Assembly (NCBI GenBank): GCA_965223905.1
Contig: CBDCXV010000011.1
Span: forward strand, 2,016,001-2,080,000
Length of the DNA: 64,000 bases
Direction: 5' to 3'
From: Candidatus Latescibacterota bacterium
GTDB lineage: Bacteria; Latescibacterota; UBA2968; UBA8231
Positions 1,130 to 45,984 of this stretch are shown here, in pieces. The position numbers and the translations under genes are program-made. Below the pieces are notes generated by a model. That model ran no database searches. It worked only from the letters and a program-made list of their open reading frames with translations, and was not told the DNA's origin. Each line of letters starts with the position of its first letter. The stretch's first letter is position 1.

Positions 1130-4040
1130 AGAACCGGGCAGGGCCGTCACCGTCATCTCGTGGGTCGTGTCCGCGGAGACGAAAGACCGTTGTCGGTCGC
1201 CTTCACCGTCACCTCGTAGACATTGTCGCCGCCGGCCTCCCCCGAGGACTCGTAGTGCTGTCGATCTCTCCTGTTCCAAGTATCACCCCGACCCTTGAGT
1301 CGGCTTTGTATCTGGTCGTCCACGCCTCCGGCCACGCCCCCCCGGCCAGCGGTTTGCTCTACCCTGCAGATCGTAGCCGCTGACCGCCTGCTTGATAGCT
1401 CACCCTCACCCGCAGCTTCTGCCCGACGTCGGCCGTTCCCGGCGTGTACCTCGCCGCCGTCGAGTCGTTAATCGCCGCCCACGAAGCCGTCACCTCGGCC
1501 CACCGCTGCCACCGCCACCCCTCGGGATTCACCCTCACGTCGCCGTCCGGATCTCTCAGCTCGGCCCTCAGCGCCTGGCCTACCTCCGGGGACGCCGGCG
1601 ATATGGTCACCGTGCCCGGCTCGTCCTTGGTGGTCACCGGTCACGGCCACGGGGAACGGGGCCGAGAAGTACGCCCCCACGTAGACGGCCTGCAAATCCA
1701 CGCCCGCATCGGCCGTCACCGTAACCGGAAGCGCCACCGCCCGGGTCGCCTTGGCCGACAAGGCCACCTCCACCGACACCGGCGCCCCCCCTTCCTGCGC
1801 CTCGTAGCTCGACGCCCCAAAGGCCACCTGAGGCTGCACCGGCGTCACCAACACCGGATCCGTTAACACACCCTCCGCCGCGGCGGACTTCGCCCGCACC
1901 CTGAACAGATATTCCACCCCGTTCGTCAGGTTTTCTACCCGGATATACCGGATCCTTCGTCCCTCATACTCGATGCGGGCCACGTCTCCGTCGGCCACCT
2001 TGGTCCATTCCATCTTGGCCGGCCTCTTCCTTTTCCCGTAGCGCCAATGGGTAATGCTGGCATCGGCGGAAGCGTCCCATAGCAGCAGCACCGCCTCATG
2101 GTCCGGCCACACCTCGAAACCCGTCGGCGGCGGCAACATCACCCCACGGGTCGGCTCACTCTGAACAAATCGGGAATAGCTGCCCGCATCCGGCACATAC
2201 CGCACCATCGCCCGCAACTGACGACCCAGATCCGCCCGCAACGGCGTGTAGCTGGCCGAGGTCGACGAGCCCGACAGATCCGACCAGGGCGCACTGTCGC
2301 TGTCATTCCGGCCCTGCCACTGCCAGCTCCCAGCGCTCACCCCCTCCAGAGAAGCCGTCAGTGCAACCCCCGGCTGCGGCCTCTTGGTGCTCAACGACAC
2401 CTCCTCCTCGCAATTGCTCAACGTGGTGTTCGTCATCGTCACCGTGCCCGACGTATGGGCCTGCACACAGCCACCCCCGTCCCGGATCGTGGCCCCGCTC
2501 AGATCGGCGCTGCCCCCGCTTTCCACCCGGATGCCCGACCAGGCGGAGGGGGACGGGGAAACAGCATTGCTTGACCGGAAGGTGACCCCCGTGCCCGCGC
2601 CAAGCGTACCCGACACGATCAGCGCCCCCGGGCTGAACGACACCTCCGTTCCCGAACCCAGGCTCAACGTCACCCCCGAAGGGATCGTCACCTCCCCGTC
2701 CACACAGACCGCGCCGCTCCACGTCGTATCCGACGACAGCGAGCCCGACCACTTCGGCGCCAACGCCAAAACCCGCACCGAGTCCCCGGCTCCCGCGTCG
2801 TTGCGCGCCCGAACCTCGAAGTAGTAGGTCGTGCAACTCCCCACCGACAGCGTCAGGCTCGTCGGAAGCGCCTCCTCCGGGGACGGCACCGCCGTCCAGT
2901 CCGACCACGTGCGCTCCCCGCCGCTCAATTGATAGGCGCCCTGACGATACTCATACCCCGTCAACGCCGTGCCCCCATCCGACAACGGCGCATCCCACGA
3001 AAGCTCCACCTGACCGTTCGCACCCGACGCTTCAGGGTTGCGAACCGGGGGCGGCCCCCGGCCCGGCGTCGCCTGAGCCTTTGACGAGTCCCCTGAACCC
3101 ACCGCGTTGACCGCACGCACCTCGAAGGTGTACTCCGTGCCGTTGCTCAGGCTCATCAGCGTGTGGCTCGCCGTCGTCGAATCGCTGTCCGCAATCGCCC
3201 CCCAGTCCGGAGACCACGTGACCGCCCCGTCCGCGCTTTGACGATACTCATACCCCGTCAAAGACGAGCCGTTGTTGAAAGGCGTCTGCCACGTCAGAAC
3301 AACCTGAGCGTCCCCCGGATCCGCTTCCAGGTTGCCCGGCGCATCCGGCTTCCCAACCGGCATCGCCCGCCGGGAGAACGAGACCGCTCCGGCCCGGTAA
3401 CTCCCCGCCGTGAGCTGGTACACCCCCCGCACCTGGAACCCGTAGACTTCCCCGTTCGCCAGGCCCGTGACCGTGTGCGACGTCGTCGACCCCGTGCTGC
3501 CGGGCACGTCCTGCCACTCCCCCCACGAGCCGAGGCCCCGCTGCTGCCGATACTGCCACTCCTCGAGCCTGTCGTGGCCCGGGCTGTCCCAGCTCAGCGT
3601 CACCTGACCGTCGCCGGCCTGCGCCCGCAAGGGTACCACCGCCACCGAGTCCGACGCCACGCCCGGCACCCCGTCCGCGTTGACCAGCCGCACGCGGATC
3701 TGGTGCACCACCGTGTCGGCCAGGCCCGACACCCGCACCGTGTCCCCTGCCGCCTCCACCCGCACCGGGGTCGCCGCCGCTCCACCACCGGAGGCGCCCC
3801 TGGCGCCGCTGGCCCCGGAGGCGCCACTCCCTCCGCCTGCCGGGGCGCGGGCCTTGACAAATAGCCCCACCTCGCCGCCGCTGTTCACCTGAGCCTCGAA
3901 ACCGAGCGCCGGGAGGGCAGTGCCGGATAACGGCTCGAACTCCTCCCGCCCGCAAGGCGGGCGCAGGCAATCCAAGACGATGAACTCCATCTTCCAGTTG
4001 GTCGCCGATTCCTCCGAGGATTGCTCCGACAGGTGCGCGC
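1130..4040 (-). pseudogene. fragmented large surface protein: several fibronectin type III repeats, beta-helix-like segment, Calx-beta-like and cadherin-like fragments
   Basis: FN3 motifs 'GDGQVTLSW...YRQ...LANGEVYGFQVRGV' and 'LSNGTEYTFEVRAVNAVG'; 'VAFGASSYEAQEG' (Calx-beta-like); 'DNVYEVTVKATD' (cadherin-like); spread over ORFs 1468-4167, 1359-1637, 1153-1335; no proper start. Confidence 0.75.
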
Positions 4041-4831
4041 CGCCGCCGCGCCGGGAGACTCCGGTACCAGCGAACGAACTCAACCTTCCCGGCATCCTTG
4101 AAAAACCGGGCCGGGTTTTCCGCCAGCACCTCGCTGGCCGTGTCCACCATCGGTCTCGACTCCACACACGTCACCGTCGCCGAACCCAGCCGCTGCGTGC
4201 GCACGATGCCGGCTGCCTCCAGGGCGCGTCCCATGGGTGTTCGGTCGTAGTAGGGAAAAGGGGGCTCGACCGAGAACTCGCTCCAGTACGGCTCGATGAA
4301 GACGCACTGCTGGTAGTGGAACATCGTGTTGACCTCCCAGTCGACACCCAGGAGCACGAGGGTGGCGTCGAGGTCGTAAAATCGCTGCCACGGGCTTTCG
4401 TGGCCGAAGGCCAGCTCCCCCCAGGGGCTCGGTCGTCCCTTCCCGCGGTCGTGCCCGGTCGTTATCTCCTCCGCCCGCGCCCCGATAGCCGCGACACTGT
4501 GGGTTGGATTGTTGCTGCGCCGCGCCTCGGCGCGCAGTCGAGCGGTTTCGGTGATGCGTCCGACCTCGGAAGGGGTCCGCTGAACATCGAACGGCGGCCG
4601 CGGCCCCTGGGCGGCGTAGACGATGGTGGGAACACAGAACGTTCCTGCCGGACCGAGGACGTGCAGGAACGCATCGATGACGGTATCGGCCCCGCCTTCC
4701 ACGTACCCCATGCTGCTGAGCGAGCTGTGGATGTAGACGACGCCGCCGTCACCGATGCTCAACTGCCGCAGGGCGCCCGCGATATCTTCGAAGGTTACCA
4801 GCGGTCCGTCCGGAATGCGCCCGCCTGCCAT
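4040..4831 (-). CDS. AAC(3)/YokD-family N-acetyltransferase; 3' end runs into the adhesin remnant without its own stop (boundary approximate)
   Basis: motifs 'VYIHSSLSSMGYVEGGA', 'RRSNNPTHSVAAIG', 'SPWQRFYDLDATLVLLGV...NTMFH'. Confidence 0.8.
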
Positions 4832-5003
4832 TGCGCCCCCCTTTCGCGTTCAACTGGATTGCTTCGATCGATCCAAACTTCGGCTCTGCGCCTGTTCTGA
4901 CATAGGCCGTAAGGAATTCGCTCCGGCCTTGATTGCCAACTATAGTTGGCGTCTCTAATTTCTACTGCAACCATGCGTAGCAGCACCAGGATAGGGTCTT
5001 AGG

Positions 5004-5333
5004 ATGGCTGCAGAGAAACATGTCATTTTCTACCGGGATGCGGCCGGGAAGGAGCCGTTCAACGACTGGTTGAAAAGCCTGCGCGACGCACGGGCAAGGC
5101 GCCGAATTCTGAGCCGTTTGTTGCGTGTCGAAAGTGGAAACTATGGCGATTGCAGATCGCTCAAGGAGGGTGTTTTTGAGTTGCGCTTTTTCTTTGGCCC
5201 CGGCTACCGCGCGTATTTCGGAGAAGTTGGAGACACGATAGTTGTGCTGCTGTGCGGGGGAGACAAGAGCAGTCAGCTCCAGGATGTTGCGAAAGCAAGA
5301 GCATATTGGAAGGAGTATTTGAGCCATGTCTAA
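5004..5333 (+). CDS. RelE/ParE-superfamily toxin (HigB-like addiction module killer)
   Basis: 'GNYGDCRSLKEGVFELRFFFGPGYRAYF...LLCGGDKSSQ'; overlaps downstream antitoxin. Confidence 0.9.
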   Translation: MAAEKHVIFYRDAAGKEPFNDWLKSLRDARARRRILSRLLRVESGNYGDCRSLKEGVFELRFFFGPGYRAYFGEVGDTIVVLLCGGDKSSQLQDVAKARAYWKEYLSHV

Positions 5334-5643
5334 GTACAGGACGTTGGGACAAGTGACCGAGCAGTATTTCAGAGAGCACCCCGAGGAGATAGAGGACTTT
5401 CTGACGGAGAACTTCGAGGAGTACGCCGCGGATGGCGATTCCGCGGCGTTGCTGTCTGCGTTGCGAATCGTTGCCCGCGTCAGGAGCCTGTCTGCGCTAG
5501 CCGATGAAGTCGGGATGACTCGTCATGGATTGCAGAAAGCGCTCTCTTCCAAAGGGAATCCGCGCCTCGACAACATCAACTCGATAATGCGGGCGATGGG
5601 ATACCGACTTATGCCGCAGAAGGTGGCGGAACGCGCTGAGTAA
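5326..5643 (+). CDS. HTH addiction module antitoxin (HigA/HI1420-like)
   Basis: 'ALADEVGMTRHGLQKALSSKGNPRLDNINSIMRAMG'. Confidence 0.9.
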   Translation: MSKYRTLGQVTEQYFREHPEEIEDFLTENFEEYAADGDSAALLSALRIVARVRSLSALADEVGMTRHGLQKALSSKGNPRLDNINSIMRAMGYRLMPQKVAERAE

Positions 5644-5678
5644 GTGGATACACCGCTGGTTCAGCGCCTGTGGTTCAG

Positions 5679-6470
5679 CTAATCCGGGTCGCTCCCCACT
5701 GCGTCGAGGCGCGCCATCTCCTCGGCTCCCAACTGCCAGTCGAACAAATCGAGATTGGCGCGCAAATGTGCCGTTGAGCTGGCCTTGGGGATGACGACCA
5801 TGTCTTTTTGCAAAAGCCACTTCATGGCCACCTGTGCCGGGGTTTTGCCGTGTTCGGCGGCCACCTGTTTCAGAGCCTTGTCCCGGGCCAGCTCGCCCTG
5901 GGCCAGCGGGCGGTGCGCGGTCAGCACCACATCGTGGGCATGGCAGTGGCGGCGCAGTTTTTCGCGGTTGTGGCGCAGGTGGTATTCCACCTGGTTGGTG
6001 CAGATGGGCAAACCGGTGGCGGCCCGGGCCCGGTCGGTCTGCTCGATGCTGAAGTTGCTGATACCAATGCTGCGGGCCTGGCCGGCCCGGTGGATCTTCT
6101 CGAAGGCGGCCAGGGTGCGCTCCACCGGCACGCCCTGACCGGGGTGGTGGATGAGCAGGAGGTCGACGTATCCGGTCCGCAGATCGCGCAGAATCTCCTC
6201 CATCTGCTCCAGGGTCGACTCGTACTCCAGGTGCGAATGCCAGATCTTGGAGGTGATGAAGAGCCGGTCGCGGTCGGCTCCCACCTCCTTCAGGGTGCGG
6301 CCGATGGCATCCTGGTTCTGGTACATCCAGGCCGAATCCAGGTGCGTATAGCCCAGTTCGAGGGCCTCTTCGACCACGGCCTGGCACTGCTTTCCGCGCA
6401 ACAGCCAGGTGCCCAGGCCCAGTTGCGGGATGGCGTGGCCCGAGGCCAAGGTAACGTTCGGCACGCTCAT
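5679..6470 (-). CDS. aldo/keto reductase (2,5-DKG reductase-like)
   Basis: 'IPQLGLGTW', 'HLDSAWMYQN', 'LFITSK', 'IGISNF', 'VIPKASS'; start MSVPNV at 6470 with AGGAGG RBS. Confidence 0.92.
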   Translation of the reverse strand: MSVPNVTLASGHAIPQLGLGTWLLRGKQCQAVVEEALELGYTHLDSAWMYQNQDAIGRTLKEVGADRDRLFITSKIWHSHLEYESTLEQMEEILRDLRTGYVDLLLIHHPGQGVPVERTLAAFEKIHRAGQARSIGISNFSIEQTDRARAATGLPICTNQVEYHLRHNREKLRRHCHAHDVVLTAHRPLAQGELARDKALKQVAAEHGKTPAQVAMKWLLQKDMVVIPKASSTAHLRANLDLFDWQLGAEEMARLDAVGSDPD

Positions 6471-6525
6471 GTTGATCCTCCTGCCCCTCCTCGCTGGATG
6501 GCCGCTGGAAGTTACTGGTCGAAGG

Positions 6526-7707
6526 TCAGGCGCACGCGGGCGCAGAACACGTCGACACGCGCCAGTCGCTGGGCGTTCGCACACACCGGTCTGAACCGCG
6601 TTCCTCGGCGATGGTTTCGCCGCCGGCATGGACGACGCGTTCGACTCCCTGCCAATCCTCCGGAATGCGCAGCATGTGGGCCTGGTAGTTCACTTCCACC
6701 GTGTGCCGCGCCGACAGGGCCCCGAAGCGGGGCACGCCCAAGAGCGGTCCGGCCATCATGGTGTCCATGACCCTGTGTGCCAGGGCGACCGAGCCGAACT
6801 CGACACCCCATGCAATCGTCCTGTTGCTGTAAGGGAGGAACTCGGCGGCCTCGTGCTCGTACCACAAGGTGGTCCAGGGAAATACCTCATGGGGAAAGAC
6901 GTACACGAGCAATAATCCGAGCCGGGGATTCGAGACCGCGGTAAACGCGTAGTCTCCCTCCGGTTCGAGAAGGACCGTGGCCACCGCCATGTAGCGATCC
7001 TCCGGATAGCGGCTCAGGTCGGCGGTGCCGCGATCGCCCTGAAGCAGAGCCCCAGGCCAGTCGAAAGACTGGTCCGGCAGCAGGGGGTCGGTGTCGTGGA
7101 TGGCGACCGGATTCGTCTGTCCCCTCCTTGCCGGCAGGTCGAGGCGGGTCAGGCCCCCTTCGACAAAAGGGGGTCCCATCGTCACGTGCTGCTGGCAGAA
7201 GAACGGGGCGTCCGAGCGCCGCAGGTTGGTCGTGCGCTCCCTGATGTAGAGGGTCGATTCGCCCGGTCGTATCTCCAGGGTGCGGAGAAAGCGCATCCGC
7301 GCATCCGGCAGGTCGAGGCCGTAATCGAGGCGGGCACTGCCCGCATCGGCCTGTTGGGCGAACACCGTCCAGGGCAGATTGGACGCTTCCCCGTGGTGAT
7401 ATCCGCCGGCTGCCTCTTCCGCTTCGCTGATGTCGCCGAAATGATTGAGACAGAGCGAGTGGCCGGCGAGCGAAGCGAGCAGACGCCCCTCACCGGGACC
7501 GTAGATTTCCAGATGCTTCTGCGGATCCCAGGCCTCCGGCTCGATCAACGGCCAGGGCGGTTCCCACAGCGGGTTCACATCGACATCCGGGCGGCGCAGA
7601 CTCGCCAGGTGTCCGCAGCCGGTCAGCGCGGTCACCTGCAACGCATCGCTCTCGAGACGAATCGCCTGGCGGTCGCGGAAGGTAGTGGTGTCGCATGTCA
7701 GATTCAC
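6526..7707 (-). CDS. hypothetical protein, possible galactose-mutarotase/aldose-epimerase-like fold
   Basis: 393-aa ORF; 'HHGEA', 'QQHVT', 'WGVEFG' motifs typical of that superfamily. Confidence 0.55.
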   Translation of the reverse strand: MNLTCDTTTFRDRQAIRLESDALQVTALTGCGHLASLRRPDVDVNPLWEPPWPLIEPEAWDPQKHLEIYGPGEGRLLASLAGHSLCLNHFGDISEAEEAAGGYHHGEASNLPWTVFAQQADAGSARLDYGLDLPDARMRFLRTLEIRPGESTLYIRERTTNLRRSDAPFFCQQHVTMGPPFVEGGLTRLDLPARRGQTNPVAIHDTDPLLPDQSFDWPGALLQGDRGTADLSRYPEDRYMAVATVLLEPEGDYAFTAVSNPRLGLLLVYVFPHEVFPWTTLWYEHEAAEFLPYSNRTIAWGVEFGSVALAHRVMDTMMAGPLLGVPRFGALSARHTVEVNYQAHMLRIPEDWQGVERVVHAGGETIAEERGSDRCVRTPSDWRVSTCSAPACA

Positions 7708-7932
7708 TGCACTCTTCTCCGGTCTGGATGTATCGCTTTCGAATCGGTCACCCTCGCCCCACCAGTTTATGGAAACAGCAGACGAACGCCACTGTGCCGG
7801 GAATATTGTTGCCGCCTGTACTCCAGCTCGATGCAGCCGCGGTATCCGCCTGGATCCATGACCTTGAACAGCCGCTTCCGGTCGAGCGTGCTATCGGCCA
7901 GGCTGGTGCTTCAGCTGCCACAAGCCCCGCCT

Positions 7933-9345
7933 TCATACAAACAGCTCTTGTACCAGCGTCCGAGCCTGCTCGACCACTGTTTCGAGGCAACCGGGGGCGA
8001 GCTTGGCCCAGTAGGTAACGTCTTCGTTGGCCTCGTGTCCGCCTCGGGCGCAGGCCTCCCGCGTCGGCAGGTAGCCGACATAGTGGGTCGTGAGGTGAGC
8101 TGGAAAGAGAAAAGGCGCCGCCGAGTTCGTTTTGAGCGCGAGCTGTCCTTCGACAAAAGGTTCCCCGGGCAGGCCGACTACGCCGAGGTCGCCGATGCGG
8201 AAAGCCTGGATTTCATAGGGGAACTCGGCGTCCCGCTGCCGGCACAGCTCGACGCTGCGGGTCGATGCGGCCCGGAACCAGCGCGGATCCACTTCGCCGT
8301 TTGCCCCGCGCGGCGGTTGTGGACTCTCAGCGAGAATCGCGTTGACCTCGCGCAAGCGCCCGGCCGGAATCTCGCGGAAGGGCAGGCCGACCTTTTCGAC
8401 CCTGCAAGCCAACGCAGCGTTGTCGGCAAACGCCATAGCGTGAACGATTCGTTCGCTCATCCGGGCCAGTTCGCGCCCCATCCGCCGGTGGTCCGGCAGG
8501 AAATCCGGGTCGAAGGGATGCCAGGGGTTGATGTTGCCGCAACAGCCGTTGACGACCAACGGCACGGCGCCGGAGCCGAACCGCTGCTGCATCTCCCGCG
8601 TCCAGGCGCCGGGCCAATCCGCCGACACGGCCCGGTAGGTCTCCGGGCACCCGAACGCATTGACCGGGTGACAGGTGTAGTGCAGGAGAAAGGCCAGCGG
8701 CTTCATGTCCATGTCCTGGACGCAGCAGACGCCGACTTCAGGATCAATCGGCCCTTCGAGGTAGCAGATATCCGCGTTCCCGAACGGCTGTTCCTCCCGG
8801 CCCCGGGGCTTGGGCATGGCGATGGTGCCGTCCCGGCGTATGCCGCGGCGATTGAAAGCCAGGTCCCCCAACACGCCGCGCCCCAGACCGATGCGCACGG
8901 GTTGCAGCCTGGCCACTGCTTCAACCGCTGCCTCCACCGCGGCGGCAGCGGCCCGGTTGCCGTAGGCGCGCTCGGCCCCACGCAGATACTCGGTCTCCTT
9001 TGTGGTTTCCAAGGGGAAATCCGGATCCAGCAAAAAGCAGCCGAGGCTCGGGGCCGAGTGCGTCTGGGTCGCCTGGACCATGATCGCCTCGGGCGGGATG
9101 CCCGTTTCCTCGCCGATGGCAGCGCGGATCTGGTCCGTGTAGTCGCCGGTGACCATGGTGAGATCCAGGATCACCATGCAGACGCGCCGCTCGCGGGCTT
9201 CGAAGACTATGGCCTTGGCAAAGAGCGGGTCCATCACGGCCTGGGCCGGGCGGTGCTCTCCGGCCCCGCTGCCTGCCAGGTGCGTACCTGCGGGCGGGGT
9301 GATGTCCTTCATCGCCGCGCCGGCTCTCAGGGTGGTCTCGTGCAT
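7933..9345 (-). CDS. neutral/alkaline ceramidase N-terminal-domain family hydrolase
   Basis: 'DITPPAGTHLAG', 'DPLFAKA', 'ATQTHSAP', 'YTCHP', 'GCCGNI', 'GLPGEPF'. Confidence 0.8.
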   Translation of the reverse strand: MHETTLRAGAAMKDITPPAGTHLAGSGAGEHRPAQAVMDPLFAKAIVFEARERRVCMVILDLTMVTGDYTDQIRAAIGEETGIPPEAIMVQATQTHSAPSLGCFLLDPDFPLETTKETEYLRGAERAYGNRAAAAAVEAAVEAVARLQPVRIGLGRGVLGDLAFNRRGIRRDGTIAMPKPRGREEQPFGNADICYLEGPIDPEVGVCCVQDMDMKPLAFLLHYTCHPVNAFGCPETYRAVSADWPGAWTREMQQRFGSGAVPLVVNGCCGNINPWHPFDPDFLPDHRRMGRELARMSERIVHAMAFADNAALACRVEKVGLPFREIPAGRLREVNAILAESPQPPRGANGEVDPRWFRAASTRSVELCRQRDAEFPYEIQAFRIGDLGVVGLPGEPFVEGQLALKTNSAAPFLFPAHLTTHYVGYLPTREACARGGHEANEDVTYWAKLAPGCLETVVEQARTLVQELFV

Positions 9346-9669
9346 GGTTTTCCGTCTGGCGCCAAGGGCGTATAAAGCGCAGAATAGGCACGGCGTGGGT
9401 CAGCGCTCTGATCCAAAGGACAGGATAACTGGATTTTAGCTGGTTTGGGAAGGATCCAGCCGGTCGCGCGAAAATGTGTGTTGTTCGGCCTGAGGAGAAA
9501 TTGAGGGAGGGCACACAGAATTGGAACGAGAAGGTTCTCTTTGAACGGCTGGCGGAGGAGGCCATCAACCTGGATCAACCGGTATTCTTGCTAGAGTCCA
9601 CCGGCCCATCTGCTGCGCTATAAATGACCGAAGAGCATTATTTTTGCCCTTTCAGGAATATGTGGTGCT

Positions 9670-9885
9670 TCACGCTTCAATCGGGGTCAGATGAAACACA
9701 CGAGACATCCGAGCCGCGTGCTCTAGATCACCCTTCCTTAGAGCCTCACGAACATCATCCAGCTTTTCAGCGTCCCTAACTGAAAGGTAGGGCGGCCATC
9801 CGGCGTCCCCATCGATCAGCTCCACCTCCACCTCCGCAGCATATTCCCCTGCGCGCACCAGTTTCGTAGTCACTCTGTTCGTCAT
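9670..9885 (-). CDS. putative antitoxin partner of DUF4258 toxin
   Basis: 71 aa MTNRVTTKLVRAGEYAAEVEVELI...; ATGA overlap with upstream gene. Confidence 0.7.
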   Translation of the reverse strand: MTNRVTTKLVRAGEYAAEVEVELIDGDAGWPPYLSVRDAEKLDDVREALRKGDLEHAARMSRVFHLTPIEA

Positions 9886-10208
9886 GTTCGTCTCCTGAGG
9901 AAACCCTCGTCCCAATCCTGTCTGTTGGGGCGATAGGCCGTCACTACGACGGCGGGTGAAGTGTATCCAGCTGGGATGCCCCACACAATGTGTATTGCTT
10001 GTCTTGTACGGTCATGCTGCAATACGAGAACACAGGGGCCTTTAGCGTAATGTGGATAATCTTCAACGACAATCGCATCTTCTACACCTTCAATAACATC
10101 GCGCACCCTAATGCCGTCCGCCGCAATTTCATCGTATCCATGGGCCGACACTCTTACTTCGCCTTTGCGCACTAACTGTTTCACAGTATCAAGTGTTTCG
10201 CCTGCCAC
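9882..10208 (-). CDS. DUF4258-family putative toxin (start uncertain)
   Basis: 'VSAHGYDE...VVEDYP..KGPCVLVL...IHIVWG...VVTAYRP..W'. Confidence 0.8.
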   Translation of the reverse strand: MAGETLDTVKQLVRKGEVRVSAHGYDEIAADGIRVRDVIEGVEDAIVVEDYPHYAKGPCVLVLQHDRTRQAIHIVWGIPAGYTSPAVVVTAYRPNRQDWDEGFLRRRT

Positions 10209-10265
10209 TTCGTCATCTCCAGAATAGGCGGACATGGGTTGCCGCCCCTACCGGCGCATATGTCA

Positions 10266-10354
10266 ACATAATGTCTTGGCCACTGGCGACGCTGCTCGTA
10301 GGGCGGCGGTCGCGGGGGGCCGAAGGCCCGGAGCCCCCAGTGGACCTGTTATGT
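10266..10354 (-). mobile_element. integron attC site A (R' core degenerate)
   Basis: minus strand ACATAAC-AGGTCCACTGG...CCAGTGGCCAAGAC-ATTATGT; homologous to sites B and C. Confidence 0.75.
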
Positions 10355-10368
10355 GGAAGCCCCGCCCT

Positions 10369-10943
10369 TCATGCAACGCTGGGCGAGAGCCGCCTCTTTA
10401 TGTCCTGCAATTCCGGAACGGCTCGCAGTAGCGCCCCAACGGCGGTAGAGAAGTAGGTCTCCAGAACCGGAAAGAAAGGCGTTCCCCTCAGATCGCGCAG
10501 CTGATCGGGGTGCTTGCCACGCGCATGTAGCGTCCCAAGGACGAAGATCTCGACAACATCTCGATATGTAAGGTAAGGTTACGTGTGTCTTCGATCGCGA
10601 TGTTTGTCGGGTGATCAAGTAAGGCGTTGAGATCGGCTCGAAGTGCTTGAAAGCGCTCTCGGATTTCTGGCGCCACGTTGAGCTGCTCGTACAACGTCCC
10701 CACCTTTCGCAACGAGATACGATCCCTCCCGTCGCGGATGAGCAACCGAAGATTAGGGATCACCGTGTTGCGCGATTTCTCCGATGGACCTTCAAAGATC
10801 GACTCCCAACCGCGTTCTCGGTCAAACACGATGAGTGCTCCGCCGTTGTCGGTCACGAACTCCTTGGTCGCGCCGAAACTCGCTATCCGATCCAGCCTCT
10901 CGCGAAACAGCTCTATCGTTTCAAGTGCCTTGGTTTTCGGCAT
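10369..10943 (-). pseudogene. gene cassette ORF of unknown function, frameshifted by a 5-bp duplication
   Basis: removing one CTTAC copy at ~10568-10577 gives a ~189-aa ORF (…NLTYRDVVEIFVLGTLHA…SPSVA*) filling the cassette. Confidence 0.7.
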
Positions 10944-10965
10944 CTCACATGCTCGAAAGGCTTTC

Positions 10966-11053
10966 ACATAACGTCTCGGCCACTGGGGAACTCGGCGTCA
11001 GCCGAGTTGCGTGGAGGGCCGAAGGCCCGGAGCCGCCAGGGGACCTGTTATCG
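10966..11053 (-). mobile_element. integron attC site B
   Basis: minus strand CGATAAC-AGGTCCCCTGG...CCAGTGGCCGAGAC-GTTATGT with internal hairpins. Confidence 0.85.
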
Positions 11054-11111
11054 GAAGTCGGCCCGGTTCGCCCGTGTCGTCTAACCCTTGTTAATCGCAT
11101 CGGCCCCGTGT

Positions 11112-12317
11112 CTACAGGATCTCGATGCTTTGCTCACCGTTCTTGTAGTAGTCAATCCATCCGTTTACCTGCTCGTAGAGGCCTTCGTCCTGCTCTCGTC
11201 GCAGGAAGTAGTGCATGGTGTCACCCCGTTCCAGTCGGAAGTCTACCGCACTCGGCATGTACGGCGACACGAGCAACATTCCGTCTGCGTCGCGATCGAT
11301 CGCGATTGCCGCGAAATGAGGGAGCGCGTCGTACGCGACGACCTTGAAGTCTCCGGGCAGGTCTTGGACTTCTGCGGAGAACGATTCGAGCCTCTCGAGC
11401 GACGCTCGGATCTTCTTTACGAGTTCCTCGCCCCGAGCCTTCTCATAGGTGTTTGCGATTTCGGCGTCTGGGTTCAACACAAGGCAGACGTAATTCACGC
11501 CGCGCCGCAACAGCTCCAACACCTGCTGCCGATATTCGCCGGGCTTTTCGCGAGTCAGCAAGTAGTTGGAGCACGTGCTGAGCGCGGTTCCGCAATCAAC
11601 CACCTCCGCAACTGCATGACTCATGATCCGAGCCTTGGCTGCCTGACTTGGCCGCTGAGCAACGGTGTTGAGTTGGAACGAGCCTTCGATCGGGATTCGG
11701 GCAATCCACTCGAAAACGTGTGCCGGTGAGGAGTGGCTCTGGAGGATGTACACATCCTCACCCTCAAACGAAAAGTCGAGCGGTGTGAACTTCTCTCGCA
11801 GTTTTGCCGAACTCGCTTCAAGGACGGCTCGTGAGATCACTAGAGCGTCGCGGGGCGCGACGCTCTCAAGGTGCGCCACGAAGTTCAGCTCCCGCGAGTG
11901 AATCGAGCCGTGACATTCTTTGTATCGAAACGCCCCCTTGTGAATCGCGACGCGGAGGTGCAGGTCTCCCCGAATCCCTTGCGTTCGAAAATCCTCGCGT
12001 AAGCCGGGCAGGCCACGCTCCAGAATCGCGATCGCGCTTTCGAGAGCCGTGGTGTTTGCCTTACTCTCATGGGAATCGTAGATGACGCATAACCCTCCGT
12101 CGCCCTGCCACCCCCAAAATTCGGCGTACGCGCAGTCATTCAGCGTCCTCCTAGACTGAACGAGGTCGTAAATGGATTTCTCTAATAGGTCGAACAGCAA
12201 GTCGGCCTTGTCGCTTGGGTTCTCGCGCACGATGGCGGAGTGCCCTGACGCATCCACTTTGACGAAGTATGCGTTGACCAGCGGGACTCCCTCCTCAAAG
12301 AGGCTGTCAGAATGCAT
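11112..12317 (-). CDS. gene cassette: class III nucleotide cyclase domain fused to PLD-like (DUF5919-like) domain
   Basis: 'VKVDASGHS', 'WQGDGGL', 'LRVAIHKG', 'LNFVAHLES'; C-terminal 'VCLVLNPD...YDALPHF...LLVSPY'; RBS AAAGGAG. Confidence 0.75.
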   Translation of the reverse strand: MHSDSLFEEGVPLVNAYFVKVDASGHSAIVRENPSDKADLLFDLLEKSIYDLVQSRRTLNDCAYAEFWGWQGDGGLCVIYDSHESKANTTALESAIAILERGLPGLREDFRTQGIRGDLHLRVAIHKGAFRYKECHGSIHSRELNFVAHLESVAPRDALVISRAVLEASSAKLREKFTPLDFSFEGEDVYILQSHSSPAHVFEWIARIPIEGSFQLNTVAQRPSQAAKARIMSHAVAEVVDCGTALSTCSNYLLTREKPGEYRQQVLELLRRGVNYVCLVLNPDAEIANTYEKARGEELVKKIRASLERLESFSAEVQDLPGDFKVVAYDALPHFAAIAIDRDADGMLLVSPYMPSAVDFRLERGDTMHYFLRREQDEGLYEQVNGWIDYYKNGEQSIEIL

Positions 12318-12403
12318 GAGGTCTTCTCCTTTCAGTCATCCGCAACGACGTGATGGTTTGACGGAGACACATGCGTACAAAACTCAAAGCGAATGACGAA
12401 TTC

Positions 12404-12495
12404 CTATAACGTCCCGGCCACTGGCGACGCCCGCCGTAGGCGGGTGTTCGCGGAGGCAGCCTCAGCGGCAGCAGCCACCAGTGGACCTGTTAGAT
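12404..12495 (-). mobile_element. integron attC site C
   Basis: minus strand ATCTAAC-AGGTCCACTGG...CCAGTGGCCGGGAC-GTTATAG. Confidence 0.85.
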
Positions 12496-12513
12496 GATGT
12501 GACGCTGGGCCTA

Positions 12514-13095
12514 TCAACAGTTCTTGGGCATCTCCTTCCAAGCCCGAGAAGCGACGTTCTCAGCAATGTCGCGCGTCACCTCGATGAACTCCTCCACTTC
12601 AGCTTCTCCGATGTTCAACTTGTGGTCGTGCGCGGCGACGTTTCGTAGCCTTCGCAGTTTCCCAAGGCCCTCTGCCTCCTGAGGCGTCACCAACTCGTGG
12701 GATCGCAGGGCCGCCAGCAAACGCGGAAACGAAACCGGTCTGTCTTGGGGAAGTAGATCCAGGGCGCGCGCGGAGGACACGGCAGTCGTTTCCAAACCGA
12801 TCCATGCCTCGATGATCGCGGCGCGCGGCGACCCCTCACCAACTGCTCGATAGTAGTCCGTGGCCTCTTCGTCCTCGGCGGGAGGCAGTCTCTTGGGTTC
12901 CGCTGGCGGTTCCAGCTGCGCCCTCACGGCAGCGAGCTCCTTGCTGAACTCTACTTCAAGATCTTTGTACCGGAATCGATTTAGGTTCGGGAGCAACGCC
13001 CGGACGGAACGGCGAAACAACACGAGAACCATCACCGCCGCAGCGGGCCAAGCTAGTGCTTCAACGAGAGCAGCGATGAACTCTAATGTCCCCAT
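12514..13095 (-). CDS. gene cassette: N-terminal TM helix plus HEPN-like domain
   Basis: hydrophobic residues ~5-27; RxxxxH motif 'LRRLRNVAAH'; RBS AGGGAG. Confidence 0.7.
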   Translation of the reverse strand: MGTLEFIAALVEALAWPAAAVMVLVLFRRSVRALLPNLNRFRYKDLEVEFSKELAAVRAQLEPPAEPKRLPPAEDEEATDYYRAVGEGSPRAAIIEAWIGLETTAVSSARALDLLPQDRPVSFPRLLAALRSHELVTPQEAEGLGKLRRLRNVAAHDHKLNIGEAEVEEFIEVTRDIAENVASRAWKEMPKNC

Positions 13096-13175: not shown

Positions 13176-13486
13176 TATTACCCATCCGATACGATGGTAC
13201 GTTTCGGGGTGAACCGTCGCAACTGTTTCCCCGTTCGGGATATCCGGCCTAACTCGTTGCGGTTGTGACAGATAGGACGATCTCCGACCCCTGGTCGGAC
13301 TGGACGGCTTTCACTACGGCAGGGCCTACCTGTGCCTTGGAGAAACGTGTTTGGCGGCGCTCGGAGACACCGGACCTTGCCGACGCCCAGTTCGCCATCC
13401 TCAAACGGATCGAATCCGATGAGTAGACAGGAAAATGAGATTCGGCTGGTTTGGAAAGGGTCCAGGCGGTCGCGAAATTGTGCTTA

Positions 13487-13845
13487 GCGGTCACACTCCG
13501 GAAAGCTGTGCCGCCACGTGGTCCGCGAGATCCTCGAATTCACAGGTCCCCCGGTACTGCACGAGCTCGGACCGCTGCTCCTGTTTCAGCCTCTCGGCCC
13601 GCCGCTCGTTGAGCGGGACCTCGTGCGTGATGAACTGCCCCCACCAACCCAATCCCCGCATGCGGTCGGGACTCGCCGCGACGAATGAATCGCGGTAGCT
13701 CGCCGGAAACAGCTCGGTGTAGGCGGCGTAGTTGTTCAGCCACGAGCTCGTGCCGATGCGCCTGATCCCCGGGGCGTTCCTCGCCGCGTCTTCGAGCAGC
13801 TGCTGCATCCAGGCGAACTTTCTGAGCCGGTCCACGAAAGGGGAA
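13487..13845 (-). repeat. diverged ~359-bp duplicate of the 3' end of the gene at 26652-27503
   Basis: near-identical to 26648-27006. Confidence 0.9.
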
Positions 13846-14868
13846 GCGCTCCAGCGTGAACGCTGTCCTCGCCTGACCCTCGACTTCGACGGCTCGGTGT
13901 CCTCCACTTGTGGTCATGCTGAAGGTACCGCGGTCGGCTACAATCCCAAGAAAAAAGGGGCGCGCAGCTACTACAACCTGTTTTGCACGGTGGCCCAAAC
14001 CGGTCAATTCTTCGATGTCCTTCACCGGCCCGGCAACGTCCATGACAGCAAGGACGCTCATGAATTCATGATGAACGTTTTCGATCGCGTGGGCGACGAA
14101 CTGGCGCACCCCGTGCTCGAGTCCCGACTGGACAGCGCCTTCTTCAGCCAACACACGCTTACCCTCATGGACCTGTATGGCGTCGAATGCACGATCAGTG
14201 TCCCTTTCGAACGCTTTGCGCTACTCAAGGACAAAATCGAGGCGCGCCAGCGCTGGTGCTATCTCGATGAGCAATGCTCCTATTTCGAGAGTGACTGGAA
14301 ACCCAAAAGCTGGCCGGCCTCGTACCGGTTTCTCTTCGTGCGCCGTAGGGTACGGCGCACGACCAAGGAAGCGCTGCAACTGGATCTGTTCGAACCCCGA
14401 GCATTCGATCACGAGTACCGCGTTGTGGTTACCAACAAGCCGAGCCTCGGCACGTAGCGTGCTCCTCTTCCACTATGGCCGCGGCGCTCAGGAAGGGATC
14501 TTCGCCGAGGCCAAGCAACATGCCGGGCTGGATCTGATCCCCACCCGACGGCTGCTCGGAAACCAGATGGTTACTTTGGGTGCGATGATGGCCCACAACC
14601 TGGGGCGCGAAATGCAGATGCTGGCGCAGGCGCGATCCAACTATTCGCGTGGCAAACGTCCGGCGGCGTGGACCTTCCAGACCCTGGGCACCTTGCGTCA
14701 GCGCTTCCTGCATCGCGCCGGGCGTCTCACTCAGCCCAAGGGAGAGTTGACCCTGACCATGAATTCGAATCCAAAAATCGAAAAGGATCTGTTGCATTTT
14801 CTCGATACACTGAAGGATGCGGCCTGACCACAACCACCTCCTTCAAGCTGATTTATGCAACGTTAGGG
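13846..14868 (+). mobile_element. IS1380-family element, 5'-truncated, frameshifted transposase
   Basis: 'LTLDFDGSV', '[12 protein letters not shown]', 'RPGNVH', 'RLDSAFF'; ends TGCAACGTTAGGG. Confidence 0.88.
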
Positions 14869-14980
14869 TGAAGTACAGCAAACAAGCGATTTGTGCCCGT
14901 TTTCCCAAGCTCCCGCGTCTTCGCTTCGAGGATTCCGGCCCGTGAAAAGCTCGGCCATCTTCGGCCCCCATGTCATTGTG

Positions 14981-16444
14981 GGGTCTATCCGGGTTTTTCA
15001 ACGCCGAAACGTAAGTACGGAAAGTACCTGAGCCCTTGCTGTCCATCTGAGTACATGACAAGGCCATAGGTCGTTCCCTATGCTTGGTGTATCCCCATCA
15101 AGCACTCCCCAAGAAAGGGAAGGGAAGGCGACCTATGACCGCTATGAAGTTCGTCTCCAAGCTGTTCCAATTCAAGGGATTTCGCGCGGTGGGCGTGTGC
15201 TTCGAAGGACACGGGGAAGAAGCGGCCGTCGTGGTCGCGGTGAAGCCCCAAAGGAACGGGTGCCGGTGTCCCGAGTGTGGGCGCCGCGGCAAGATCGTAC
15301 AGGTCATGGAGTTCCGCCGCTGGCGCGACGTCCGCGTTTGCGGCCGTACCCTCTGGTTGCACCACGCCCCTCGGGAGATCCGCTGCCCGACCCACGGCCG
15401 TCGCGTCGAGGAGGTGCCCTGGGCGGCGCCCTCGGCCCAGGTCAGCTACCGCTTCGAATACCTGCTGCTGAGGTACTGCCAGTGGATGACGCAGGCCGCC
15501 GCCGCGCGCCTGCTGGGTCTGGCCCCGTCGACCCTGTCCGACCAGCTGCACCGGCTCATCGAGCGCCGGCGTACGGGGCACCGCATCCGCCGGCTGAAGA
15601 CCCTCGGCATCGACGAGATCTCCTACGCCAAGGGCCATAAATACGCTACCCTGGTCTACGACCTGGAACGCTCCCGTGTCGTCTGGGTCGGCAAGGGCAA
15701 GGCACGGAAGACCATCGACGCGTTTTTCCGGGACCATCTCAGCGCCTTCCAGAAGGACCGCATCCGCTGGGCCTGCTGCGACCTGAGCGAGACCTTCATC
15801 GGCGCCATCCGGCAGCATGGTCCCAACGCCGAGTTGGTCCTGGACCGATTCCACGTCGTCAAGGCCCTCAACGAAGCCGTCGACGAGGTGCGCAAGGAGC
15901 AGTGGCGGCAAGCCTGTGGCGAGGACCGCAAGCTGCTCAAGGGCCTGCGCTGGGTGCTGCTGCATCACTCCGCCCAGCGCTCGCGAAAGGATCGGCGCAC
16001 GCTCCAAACCCTGGAGAAGGCCAACCGCCGCATCTACCGCGCCTGGCGCCTGAAGGACGAGTTCGAGCACTTCTGGCGCTACAAGGCGCGCTGGGCCGCC
16101 GAACGCTTCCTCAAGAAGTGGACGACGGCGGCCCTGCGCAGCCGCCTGCAGCCCCTGCGCAAGTTCGTCAACACGGTGCGCAAGCAGGCGGCCGGCATCA
16201 CCGCCTTCGTCGACACGCACCTGACCAACGCCGCCGCCGAAGGGCTCAATCGCATTATCCGCATGGTCAAGAATCGAGCCAGTGGATTTAAAACTCTGGA
16301 TGCCTTTGCCGACCTGATTTACCTGTGCGTCGGAGACCTCGATATCCCTGCGCAGATTCCGGCCCGATTCCGTACAGTATGAAACCCTAAAAATCTCATT
16401 GGGGAAACGCTATAAATACCACGTTGAAAAACCCGTATATAGCC
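14981..16444 (+). mobile_element. ISL3-family element, copy 1 (1464 bp), no target duplication
   Basis: IRs GGGTCTATCCGGGTTTTTCAACG / GGCTATATACGGGTTTTTCAACG. Confidence 0.95.
15084..16382 (+). CDS. ISL3 transposase
   Basis: Zn finger CPECG…CPTH, 'LGIDE', 'DRFHVVK', 'TNAAAEGLN'. Confidence 0.95.
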   Translation: MVYPHQALPKKGKGRRPMTAMKFVSKLFQFKGFRAVGVCFEGHGEEAAVVVAVKPQRNGCRCPECGRRGKIVQVMEFRRWRDVRVCGRTLWLHHAPREIRCPTHGRRVEEVPWAAPSAQVSYRFEYLLLRYCQWMTQAAAARLLGLAPSTLSDQLHRLIERRRTGHRIRRLKTLGIDEISYAKGHKYATLVYDLERSRVVWVGKGKARKTIDAFFRDHLSAFQKDRIRWACCDLSETFIGAIRQHGPNAELVLDRFHVVKALNEAVDEVRKEQWRQACGEDRKLLKGLRWVLLHHSAQRSRKDRRTLQTLEKANRRIYRAWRLKDEFEHFWRYKARWAAERFLKKWTTAALRSRLQPLRKFVNTVRKQAAGITAFVDTHLTNAAAEGLNRIIRMVKNRASGFKTLDAFADLIYLCVGDLDIPAQIPARFRTV

Positions 16445-17643
16445 GGTTTCCGGCGCCTGCGAGACGTGGACTATTACCGGGACGATCCGGTCGTGCGGCG
16501 TTTGTTGGGGCTGCGTCGTCTCCCCGACGTGGCCACCGTCAGTCGCACCCTGGCGACCCTGAAGCCCTCGAATATTGCCACGGTGCGGCAGCTGTCCTCG
16601 ACCTTGGTGAGGAACGCCCTGCAGCGTGAGCGTTTTGCCCGTCTGACCCTCGACTTCGACGGCTCGGTGGTGTCCACGCGCGGTCATGCCGAAGGCACCG
16701 CTGTCGGCTACAACCCCAAAAGAAAGGGCGCGCGCAGCTACTACAACCTGTTCGGCACCGTGGCCCAAACCGGGCAATTCCTCGATGTCCTGCACCGTCC
16801 CGGCAACGTCCATGACAGCAAGGGCGCTCATGAGTTCATGATGGACGCCTTCGATCGCGTGCGCGCCCTTCTTCCCCACACCGTGCTCGAGGCTCGACTG
16901 GACAGCGCCTTCTTCAGCCAACACACGCTCACTCTCCTCGACCTGTATGGCGTCGAATCCACTCTCAGCGTGCCGTTCGAACGCTTCCCCGTACTCAAGC
17001 ACAAAATCGAGTCCCGCAAGCGCTGGCGCTATCTGGATGAGGAACGCTCCTATTTCGAGAGTGCGTGGAAACCGGCCAGCCGGCCGGCCACGTATCGGTT
17101 TGTCTTTGTGCGCCGTACGGTCAAGCGTCAGACCAAGGAGCCCTTGCAGCTGGATCTGTTTCAACCTCGCGAAACCGACTAGGACTACCGCGTCCTGGTC
17201 ACCAACAAGAGGACCTCGGCAGGCAACGTGGTCCTCTTCCACGGGGGCCGCGGCGCTCAGGAAGGGATCTTCGGCGAGGCCAAGCAGCAGGCCGGGTTGG
17301 ACCTGATCCCCACCCGAAGGGTACTCGGCAACCAGATGGTCACCTTGTGTGCGAGGATGGCTCACAACCTGGGGCGCGAAATGCAGATGCTCACCCAGGG
17401 GCGCTCGACCTATTCGCGCGCCAAACGTCCGCCGCCGTGGACCTTCCAGACCCTGGACACCTTGCGTCATCGCTTCATCCAACGCGCCGGCCGGCTCACC
17501 CAGCCCAAGGGCGAGTTGACCCTGACGATGAACTCGAACCCAAAAGCCCAAAAAGATCTGTTGCATTTCCTCGAAACACTGAAGCAAGCGGCCTGATCAC
17601 AACCGCCTCATACTCGTTCAAACAGGTTTTTGCAACGTTAGGG
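16445..17643 (+). mobile_element. IS1380-family element, second diverged copy, 5' cut by ISL3, internal TAG at 17180-17182
   Basis: same motifs as 13846-14868; same right end TGCAACGTTAGGG. Confidence 0.88.
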
Positions 17644-45982: not shown

Positions 45983-45984
45983 CG

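Follow-up and report, generated by a model that had tools for sequence, protein, structure and literature searches.

A one-gene unit between attC-like sites in a Latescibacterota genome joins a class III cyclase fold to a phospholipase D fold without HKD motif: a candidate enzyme of cyclic-nucleotide conflict signalling

In this report, we examine a stretch of 64,000 nucleotides (nt) from a Candidatus Latescibacterota bacterium (assembly GCA_965223905.1, contig CBDCXV010000011.1, positions 2,016,001 to 2,080,000 of the forward strand), hereafter the window, and particularly one gene in it that encodes a nucleotidyl-cyclase fold followed by a phospholipase D (PLD) fold. This gene, which we call the cyclase-PLD gene, lies at G000:C11:2027115-2028317 of the source genome (G000; 7.9 Mb, 93.6% complete), and no second copy was found across the assembly. 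A sequence-only reading of the stretch had taken it for a nucleotide cyclase-PLD-like fusion carried by an integron cassette, and for a candidate new defence system based on cyclic nucleotides. The gene, its two domains and the residues on which the argument turns are the following:

11112..12317, minus strand: cyclase-PLD gene, whole open reading frame (ORF), 401 amino acids (aa) plus stop, ATG start
12326..12329, minus strand: GGAG, read from the sequence as the ribosome-binding site, 8 nt upstream of the start codon
11703..12296, minus strand: class III nucleotidyl-cyclase-fold domain, residues ~8-205, delimited by its structural model, a Foldseek search against the PDB and profile matches to CyaB, 3mr7 and Ma1120
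12252..12254, minus strand: codon of D22, first metal-binding Asp (motif V-D-A-S-G-H-S), invariant in 33/33 aligned homologues
12099..12101, minus strand: codon of D73, second metal-binding Asp (motif W-Q-G-D-G-G), invariant in 33/33 and aligned with the GD of CyaB and Ma1120
11871..11885, minus strand: N145-F-V-A-H149, transition-state motif with His in place of the class III Arg, N145 and H149 invariant in 33/33
11115..11681, minus strand: PLD-fold, DUF5919-like domain without HKD, residues ~213-401, from the domain model, fold searches and a Pfam DUF5919 score of 19.9 bits
11295..11318, minus strand: H334-F-A336-A-I-A-I-D341, the place where H-x-K-x4-D would be expected, counted back from the invariant D341 and deduced from spacing and strand order

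The protein has no hydrophobic or membrane segment (the highest 19-residue Kyte-Doolittle mean is 1.03), as had been read from the sequence. No sigma-70-like promoter was found upstream of the gene: the one such site lies inside the ORF, and the consensus used may differ from the promoters of the host. Searched against the PADLOC and NCBIfam profile libraries, the protein matched 0 families in each; for PADLOC, this is what had been expected of a new system.

The N-terminal half was modelled by AlphaFold2 with a pLDDT (predicted local distance difference test) of 90.6 and a predicted template-modelling score (pTM) of 0.80. Compared with the PDB by Foldseek, it matches CyaB (3r5g_B, E 5.1e-10) and CyaC (1wc1_A, TM-score 0.80, root-mean-square deviation (rmsd) 2.5), together with Ma1120, Rv1900c and the uridylate cyclases of Pycsar (7r65_A, a synthase of cyclic UMP, E 6.4e-9, and 8jsz). 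Sequence profiles point the same way, with matches to 3mr7 (E 0.0067), CyaB and Ma1120 (E 2.8e-4), and their alignments place Q-G-D-G-G onto the G-D of the second metal site, L-R-V-A-I-H-K-G (R122, H126) onto the R-I-G-I-H-x-G strand, and N-F-V-A-H onto N-x-A-A-R. Thus, the four motifs on which the sequence-only reading relied (KVDASGHS, QGDG, LRVAIHKG, N-FVA-H) are all present and had been read correctly, and the cyclase fold it had predicted is borne out by the model. In these alignments, H149 falls on the Arg of the cyclase N-x3-R motif in 3mr7, CyaB and Ma1120, as well as in a second cyclase family, A8, to which we return below. The other departure concerns the choice of the base. In class III cyclases, the residue four positions before the second Asp is a Lys in adenylyl cyclases and a Glu in guanylyl cyclases; here this position is Gly69, within the family consensus F-W-G-W-Q-G-D. 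The domain thus has the class III fold and both metal-binding Asp, while two hallmarks, the Arg of N-x3-R and the base selector, are absent. The active site appears to be remodelled, with a His for the transition-state Arg and without the canonical base-specifying Lys or Glu, and a non-canonical nucleotide specificity is possible. The Pfam family PF00211 has no match in the protein at E <= 10, and it is found at the margin among relatives, with a precomputed match in P0037 and 20.9 bits in P0088, against a cut-off of 21.9.

How far these features extend can be seen from the homologues. A word-indexed search of 5.8 billion clusters returned 43 proteins, nearly all of about 400 aa and covered over their full length, at 30-69% identity; the JGI label 'class 3 adenylate cyclase' is attached to five of them. 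A second search, run exhaustively with HMMER over 1.84 billion representatives, returned 280 matches at E <= 0.001, among which each half of the protein occurs elsewhere without the other. An alignment of 33 of the 43 homologues (A1) omits P0003-P0005, which are near P0002, P0018, and six truncated proteins (P0007, P0034, P0036, P0038, P0039 and P0041). Its invariant positions include D22, W68, W70, G72-D73-G74-G75, R122, H126, H140, S141, N145 and H149 in the first half, and R222, G243, A336, D341 and Y353 in the second. Being invariant in 33/33, the N-x3-H motif is a trait of the family and not a one-off substitution. Two longer family forms, P0055 (741 aa) and P0054 (537 aa), were also noticed, one with an N-terminal Trans_reg_C plus BTAD (SARP-like) module and one with a C-terminal CXXCXGXG zinc-finger region. 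No homologue was found in the phage collection, nor by a search of the viral sequences of IMG/VR with A1 and A6.

The motif reaches beyond the two-domain family. We scanned one genome per species, over 185,579 species, with sequence patterns, and 79 loci were kept. Across the stored loci, N-x3-H was read in 65 of 82 domain matches, and the regular expression found nothing in the other 17. Most of the matches (71/82) come from loci other than the two-domain ones, chiefly from Spirochaetota proteins of 310-350 aa whose cyclase-like domain is C-terminal. The majority of those loci entered the scan through the pattern W[GS]W[QA]GDGG and read N-Y-A-A-H, and since this does not fit the N-F pattern of the scan, the count is only partly circular. 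Among 39 relatives that have the N-terminal domain only, Pfam recognizes Response_reg in three and an FGE-sulfatase domain in two; finds made once each comprise, among others, Trypsin_2, FHA, caspase, TPR, EAD7, methyltransferase, phosphoribosyltransferase and radical SAM. A divergent PLD-like C-terminal domain was nevertheless present in 10 of the 22 apparent N-only relatives that were tested.

The C-terminal domain was modelled on its own (residues 200-401, 57 sequences) with a pLDDT of 93.5 and a pTM of 0.89. In an all-against-all structural search (VIA), 22 chains reach Z >= 8, and those listed all have the PLD fold. The best match is the sugar-binding domain of TrmB (2f5t, Z 12.6, rmsd 2.7 over 131 residues), followed by the DUF1669 domain of FAM83B (5lzk, Z 12.0), TrmB 3qph (11.8) and TrmBL2 (11.4); the PLD nucleases SauUSI (Z 11.7), NucT (11.2) and Nuc (1bys, 10.8) are found as well. 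Foldseek agrees, with TrmBL2 at E 6e-6 and 80 matches at E <= 0.001. The H-x-K of the HKD motif is absent from this domain. Indeed, when positions are mapped by spacing, the putative Lys position is Ala336 in 33/33, and the His position, 334, is variously H, Y, R, G or S. A PLD fold without a clear HKD motif had been predicted from the sequence, and both parts of that prediction hold. The DUF5919 label fared less clearly: this is the only Pfam family to match the domain (PF19319, residues 267-357, E 6.9e-4), and its 19.9 bits stay below the cut-off of 23.5. In the ESM Atlas, all scores for residues 205-401 are <= 0.87, a range in which the tool yields leads only, and one cluster is 15% DUF5919. 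For the PLD-like part, a role in sensing or dimerisation is more probable than one as an effector. Of the two roles that had been offered for it, sensor and effector, the sensor fits, because the HKD residues are absent, the nearest folds are non-catalytic (TrmB, FAM83), and the domain is the constant partner of interchangeable outputs, as we will detail below.

This last point comes from the sister proteins that share the C-terminal domain and have something else before it. The set comprises 48 C-domain-only representatives among 150 listed, sorted with a script for hydropathy and by inspection of the sequences. In 27 of the 48, the N-terminus consists of one to four hydrophobic segments, typically in a protein of about 280 aa with two helices (2TM, two transmembrane helices). 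The remainder have a TIR domain (2/48), another cyclase-like domain (8/48) or a helix-turn-helix (HTH)-like region (6/48), or are short proteins (5/48). Pfam finds DUF5919 in 19 of the 48 (E <= 0.001) and a CAP12/Pycsar TIR domain in two. The TIR domain of P0137 matches PADLOC profiles for the TIR effector of CBASS (the cyclic-oligonucleotide-based antiphage signalling system; E 2.5e-47) and for PycTIR (E 8.4e-35), and it shares about 43% identity with plasmid genes annotated as pycTIR. In Pycsar-type TIR effectors, as described in the main text of a recent preprint (10.64898/2026.08.12.744502), a sensor domain stands where these sisters have the PLD-like domain.

The second cyclase family, A8, is canonical class III, with K-x-x-G-D and the Arg (Ma1120, E 6e-20). 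It aligns with both domains of the cyclase-PLD family (hhalign probability 99.9, E 7e-34, 293 columns, H149 on the Arg of A8). Because of this alignment, and because 10 of the 22 N-only relatives carry the C-terminal domain after all, we consider that the combination of a cyclase with a PLD-like domain is old, diverged and retained.

Two loci of 2TM sisters, the only two long enough to show their context, have a defence-like neighbourhood. One is on the conjugative Nostoc plasmid pNPM2 (L097), where positions 2932-8528 encode, in one direction, a SAVED protein, a CBASS oligonucleotide cyclase, a hypothetical protein, an AAA ATPase and the 279-aa 2TM protein, which NCBI names 'DUF5919 domain-containing protein' and which was the sole relative returned by the plasmid search. 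The other belongs to a metagenome contig of 15.7 kb, where its neighbours encode an AAA_21/AAA_15 ATPase, an HD protein, a DNA methylase and a fusion of guanylate kinase with dCTP deaminase. The ATPases that flank the two genes are not homologous to each other, so the 2TM gene is best viewed as a stand-alone resident of defence islands, and no N-domain cyclase was found near a 2TM sister in L086-L089. In L086, a 266-aa ORF (2278-3078, plus strand) lies 91 nt upstream of the 2TM-PLD-like gene; its G-S...D-I-D was read as nucleotidyltransferase-like, and neither Pfam nor PADLOC returned anything for it.

Loci that encode both the cyclase and the PLD-like domain are rare, since they make up only 10 of the 79 kept loci. 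They come from an alphaproteobacterial metagenome-assembled genome (MAG), a Magnetococcales MAG, four Actinomadura, one Actinoallomurus, two Actinophytocola and one Actinomycetota MAG. In five of the ten (L008-L012), a PNP_UDP_1 (PNP) gene adjoins the fused gene or lies within ~3 kb of it; four of these five are from related actinomycetes and so are not independent. The PNP of L008 is a PNP-STAND fusion on the same strand, after a radical SAM gene, and that of L009, the sole one scanned, matches the PADLOC CBASS model 'Effector PN-superfamily' (E 5.4e-32). A double phosphoribosyltransferase occurs in 3/10 fused loci: L009, L012 and L016 (Actinomadura, Actinophytocola) share this protein of 560-570 aa together with an unclassified protein of 360-440 aa, and the PNP too except in L016. 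L010 and L011 share instead the PNP and two unclassified proteins of ~500 and 256 aa. We also looked for a separate PLD-like partner gene near the cyclase-only relatives, and there was none in the 79 loci beyond the ten fused ones. The idea that the cyclase-PLD protein feeds separate effectors with a PLD-like domain was rejected, as G000, G168, G169 and G170 each hold a single PLD-like match.

The protein is predicted to work as a pair. The predicted homodimer scores 0.83, whereas the best of three controls stays at 0.00, and in the three homodimer runs at least 86% of the contacts are common, with a partner pLDDT of at least 84. The mark used for this tool was reached by 20 of 30 solved same-chain pairs and by 1 of 23 solved single chains. 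On the cyclase side, the predicted interface comprises residues 68-73 and 138-149, one stretch for each half of a class III active site; on the PLD-like side, it comprises 205-236, 331-335, 340-341, 352-355 and 366-373, and in the model this face is the one where Nuc-type dimers build their shared site. The result may partly reflect memory of the model, since solved cyclase and Nuc dimers exist.

The mobility of the gene was the other part of the sequence-only reading. The features involved are the following:

11048..12489, no strand assigned: cassette-like unit with only the cyclase-PLD gene, 1442 nt, equal to the spacing of the repeats
10968..11051, plus strand: attC-like site downstream of the gene, ATAAC...GTTAT, where the G|TT crossover would fall at 11047|11048
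12406..12493, plus strand: attC-like site upstream of the gene, ATAAC...GTTAG, where the G|TT crossover would fall at 12489|12490
10268..10352, plus strand: third attC-like site of the same cluster, which bounds the neighbouring unit with a 159-aa ORF

Like attC sites in general (RYYYAAC...GTTRRRY), the three sites are imperfect hairpins; they have 84-88 nt, begin with ATAAC or ATAAT and end with GTTAT or GTTAG (3 matches, against 0.32 expected). Folded as single-stranded DNA, they have paired ends and an L-box-like stem, with z from -2.1 to -2.6 on the plus strand. No further copy was found in the 7.9-Mb genome. The best candidate for an integron integrase in G000 is on another contig, scores 127 bits with TIGR02249, whose cut-off is 265, and leaves profile positions 182-253 uncovered; no protein of three related genomes exceeds the cut-off either. 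Because no integrase reaches it, 'integron' means here a small attC cluster without integrase: the part of the claim that concerns a unit between attC-like sites stands, and the part that implies an integrase does not. The one-gene units of the cluster hold a DUF4258 toxin with a small overlapping ORF, the 159-aa ORF, the cyclase-PLD gene and a DUF4145 protein. In the DUF4258 unit (9670-10235, minus strand), the DUF4258 protein (9882-10235, Pfam E 9.6e-14) overlaps a 104-aa ORF (9670-9984), which together look like a toxin-antitoxin pair of the kind typical of attC arrays. The direction of a cassette follows from the asymmetry of its attC hairpins, and by this rule all four ORFs appear to be antisense to the usual cassette direction, while the complementarity of the R boxes is symmetric and uninformative.

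Several observations characterize the region as accessory. The GC content of the cyclase-PLD unit is 0.578, against 0.653 for the adjacent core genes. Among 168 genomes of the phylum, the profile of the PLD-like domain matches G000 only, and both genomes of the same genus are without the cyclase-PLD gene. One of these, G103, is 96% identical to the window up to ~9351 and shares nothing with it beyond; its next 15.7 kb (L095, G103:C1:480000-496000) have no match in the 64-kb window. As synteny ends there, the region from 9.35 kb on is a variable island. In run X6, a contig of 2071 nt (record 26) carries the cyclase gene at ~94% identity (94 mismatches and 12 gaps over 1726) and covers 10014-10224 and 10971-12688 of the window. 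It joins 10224 to 10971 with 50 nt between and skips 746 nt, so that the toxin and cyclase units lie side by side, which is the array minus exactly the 159-aa unit. This looks like cassette-wise gain or loss, of the neighbouring unit only, and recombination between similar repeats gives the same picture. In run X3, joints 11008->10328 and 11017->10328 with inserted letters were also seen.

Some further observations concern the surroundings of the cluster. A single attC-like site, 79-84% identical to the three of the window, lies at 9999-10093 of L096 (G105:C1), in another genus of the same family, and no IntI above the cut-off was found in G105. A stretch of ~40 nt (GCTGGTTTGG.AAGG.TCCAG.CGGTCGCG) is common to 9441-9478, left of the attC cluster, and to 13444-13480, at the start of an insertion sequence (IS) copy at 13458, with a weaker third copy at 26619; the attC cluster may thus be bracketed by IS ends. 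Beyond 13.4 kb, the window is rich in IS (13458-17513), with a frameshifted DDE_Tnp_1_4 transposase (13732-14827), its second copy (16611-17513, 84-86% identity) and an ISL3 transposase (15084-16382); an ORF of the same length as the latter (432 aa) is found at 43075-44373, and an IS4/5 transposase lies at 22174-23025. A duplication of ~450 nt (28668-29113 and 32957-33405, 90-96% identity, 4.29 kb apart) encloses a 590-aa FGE-sulfatase-domain protein (29196-30968, plus strand). Finally, 44426-49152 (minus strand) encodes a 1055-aa SNF2/ResIII helicase and then a 518-aa sacsin-domain protein, with a GC content of 0.42-0.57 between 38 and 47 kb, and this segment may be another defence-like module.

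Taken together, these observations lead us to propose that the cyclase-PLD protein would be a stand-alone, horizontally acquired signalling enzyme of conflict or defence, working as a homodimer. Two cyclase domains would pair head to tail, bringing D22 and D73 of one chain opposite the N145, H149 and R122 of its partner, and two dead PLD folds would pair across the face of the would-be HKD site. The PLD-like domain would be the input module: a cue, be it a small ligand that bears a phosphate or a component of a phage, would set the geometry of the dimer and switch the cyclase on, and the same module would switch the 2TM, TIR and HTH partners in the sister proteins. Pores made of 2TM proteins, TIR NADases, HTH regulators and class III cyclases probably all work only when brought together, and it is because of this common need that we propose the dead PLD fold as a dimerisation switch. 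As its output, the enzyme would make a nucleotide, cyclic or of another kind, for a receptor encoded elsewhere, which could be a host receptor of cyclic nucleoside monophosphates (cNMP) or a partner such as the PNP enzymes, or there would be no receptor at all if the cyclase itself is toxic. By analogy with the modular sisters, we advance only tentatively that the dead PLD fold is a dimerisation switch responsive to a ligand or trigger, with the N-terminal module as output, as we doubt it slightly more than we believe it. The wider claim, in which the DUF5919-like dead PLD fold is a dimerising sensor of bacterial immunity for interchangeable outputs and the cassette gene a one-gene infection alarm, with a second messenger that is possibly non-canonical, is possible and clearly more doubtful. 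A new cyclic-nucleotide defence system is nonetheless a plausible description of the predicted role, given the 0 matches of PADLOC and a context that is both accessory and mobile.

Several points weigh against this proposal. The sensor role comes by analogy of architecture and from the nearest folds, and the PLD nucleases score comparably to TrmB and FAM83 (SauUSI 11.7, NucT 11.2, Nuc 10.8). The change of Arg to His and the missing Lys could mean reduced or different chemistry, and N-x3-H is not specific to defence, because it is common in the Spirochaetota relatives. The cassette encodes no receptor or effector, and one query for a PNP partner found none in G000. The null result of PADLOC fits novelty and fits a non-defence function equally. 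The six HTH-like N-termini were judged by eye, with no Pfam HTH at E <= 0.001, and the defence-island context of the 2TM sisters comes from two loci.

The alternative that survives best is that of an ordinary one-component signalling cyclase without any role in defence, in which the PLD-like domain would sense a metabolite and tune cAMP or cGMP, and the gene would have been captured by chance between attC-like sites. The sugar-sensing TrmB is indeed the best fold match, DUF5919 combined with an HTH-like region looks like a one-component regulator, the Spirochaetota relatives of the cyclase domain appear regulatory (Response_reg in 3/39), metabolic genes lie upstream in the window (an aldo-keto reductase and a ceramidase-like protein), and PADLOC is silent. 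Such a role fits less well, however, with a gene present in one of the 168 genomes of the phylum and missing from both genomes of the same genus, with a C-terminal domain that is fused to a TIR of Pycsar and CBASS type and to 2TM modules in defence-island contexts, with the PNP-family gene beside 5/10 loci, of which the one scanned matches a CBASS-type effector, and with a DUF4258 toxin in the neighbouring cassette. We therefore hold a metabolite-sensing cyclase to be unlikely, if still a serious competitor.

Less probable is the reading in which the signal activates the PLD-like domain of the same protein as a nuclease or phospholipase that kills the infected cell, which is the cyclase-effector that had been offered from the sequence. 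The PLD fold does cover the nucleases Nuc, NucT, Zucchini, BfiI and SauUSI (Z 9.5-11.7), and R222, D341, Y353, R364, D366 and H369, which are conserved in the family, could form a site of another kind than HKD. But H-x-K is absent, with an invariant Ala at the Lys position and a variable His position as far as spacing tells, the top folds TrmB and FAM83 are non-catalytic, and the TIR and 2TM sisters would then have two effectors and no sensor. This reading finds no support in our results.

Nucleotide-consuming toxins exist, and the cyclase itself might be the effector: triggered through the PLD-like sensor, it would turn a whole pool of one nucleoside triphosphate into cNMP and arrest the cell by depletion or overload, so that a receptor would be dispensable. 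This would explain the one-gene cassette, which has no receptor, and the PNP partner that the query tried did not find in the genome. The cyclase also stands where the sister proteins have their toxic 2TM and TIR modules, and none of the four fusion-carrying genomes (4/4) encodes another PLD-like protein. Class III cyclases are, however, usually generators of signals, the PNP gene beside half of the reference loci suggests downstream partners, and cNMP cyclases are read as generators of second messengers in the main text of PMC7159879. We rate this possibility as very improbable, slightly below the preceding one.

The least probable of all is that the cyclase-like domain no longer cyclises and is a nucleotide-binding pseudo-enzyme or carries out another nucleotidyl transfer, for although H149 replaces the Arg in 33/33, Gly69 stands four residues before D73, PF00211 has no match at E <= 10 and the main text of PMC7159879 notes inactive cNMP cyclase domains in conflict systems, the invariance of D22, D73, R122 and N145 in 33/33 is the pattern expected from selection for catalysis, and a His could also stabilise a phosphoryl transition state.

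Should the dead PLD fold be a sensor, as we propose, it would represent a new class of sensor in cyclic-nucleotide immunity and would provide a function for Pfam DUF5919. CBASS, Pycsar, Pucsar and type III CRISPR all combine a signal maker with an effector, in which a sensor is coupled to a toxic domain. The two sister families that share the same C-terminal partner, one with the textbook Lys and Arg and one with an invariant His and no base selector, also constitute a natural experiment on the chemistry of cyclases. Moreover, a candidate defence gene that is stored as a single attC-bounded unit and is otherwise absent from the phylum bears on how such genes spread.

It remains to compare the protein with what has been described. 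No description of a cyclase-PLD fusion was found in the titles, abstracts and main texts searched (supplements and figures were outside this search), and DUF5919 is not mentioned in the literature searched. The main text of the Pucsar preprint (10.64898/2026.08.12.744502) does not mention a PLD partner, while its Table S1 and figures may include the family; the apparent PLD matches in this preprint and in the Liu-DS preprint turned out to be the word pLDDT. The terms 'PLD' and 'phospholipase D' are absent from the main text of PMC7159879.

With the class III cyclases (CyaB 3r5g, CyaC 1wc0, Ma1120 4wp8), the protein shares the fold (TM-score 0.7-0.8), the two metal-binding Asp, the GDG loop, the R-x-x-x-H-x-G strand and the catalytic Asn, and a head-to-tail dimer is predicted for it. 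It differs from them by the His in place of the Arg, the Gly at the base selector, the absence of a PF00211 match and a regulatory domain that is C-terminal and has the PLD fold. For this second domain, the closest described structures are the C-terminal domain of TrmB and TrmBL2 and the DUF1669 of FAM83, which provide the best folds (Z 12.6, 11.4-11.8 and 12.0) and likewise have no working HKD. The TrmB domain was deposited as sugar-binding, according to the title of its entry, and identity to the C-terminal domain is 9-12%; its partner is a winged helix, whereas here it is a cyclase. DUF5919 (PF19319) is the only Pfam family that touches this domain, with a match below the curated cut-off.

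Mobile integrons have been described as encoding phage defence systems (bioRxiv 10.1101/2024.07.02.601719). Like defence integron cassettes, the cyclase-PLD gene forms a one-gene unit between attC-like sites, beside a unit that resembles a toxin-antitoxin pair, and a neighbouring unit is present or absent between relatives; unlike them, it belongs to a cluster of three sites only, and IntI is absent from the genome and from three relatives.

The cNMP cyclases of the vWA-MoxR/VMAP conflict systems are fused to trypsin, FGS, caspase and related domains, as laid out in the main text of Kaur et al. 2020 (PMC7159879), and relatives of the N-terminal domain are also fused to trypsin, caspase, FGE-sulfatase (FGS), TPR and EAD domains. 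The cyclase-PLD protein is in contrast a compact two-domain one, and genes for vWA, MoxR, VMAP and STAND proteins are absent from its cassette.

Finally, immune cNMP cyclases fall into two clades, one of which holds Pycsar and the new cGMP-based Pucsar, according to the main text of the preprint cited above (10.64898/2026.08.12.744502). Pycsar and Pucsar pair a cyclase (PycC or PucC) with a cNMP-binding TIR or TM effector, and they have in common with the present protein a class III-type cyclase and a mobile, accessory context; the PycC fold is among its matches, and sisters of its C-terminal domain carry a PycTIR-like TIR. The differences lie in the organisation, as the cassette at 11048-12489 consists of one ORF, without a separate effector gene or a cNMP-binding domain, between neighbours that are the 159-aa ORF and the DUF4145 gene, and in the PADLOC models, which include Pycsar and whose PycTIR model matched P0137, but which match nothing in the cyclase-PLD protein. 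Because no cNMP-binding effector gene accompanies it, the protein is not Pycsar as defined; it resembles a class III cyclase coupled to a sensor, its place is among the cyclases of conflict type, and we regard it as a candidate variant of cyclase-based conflict signalling.

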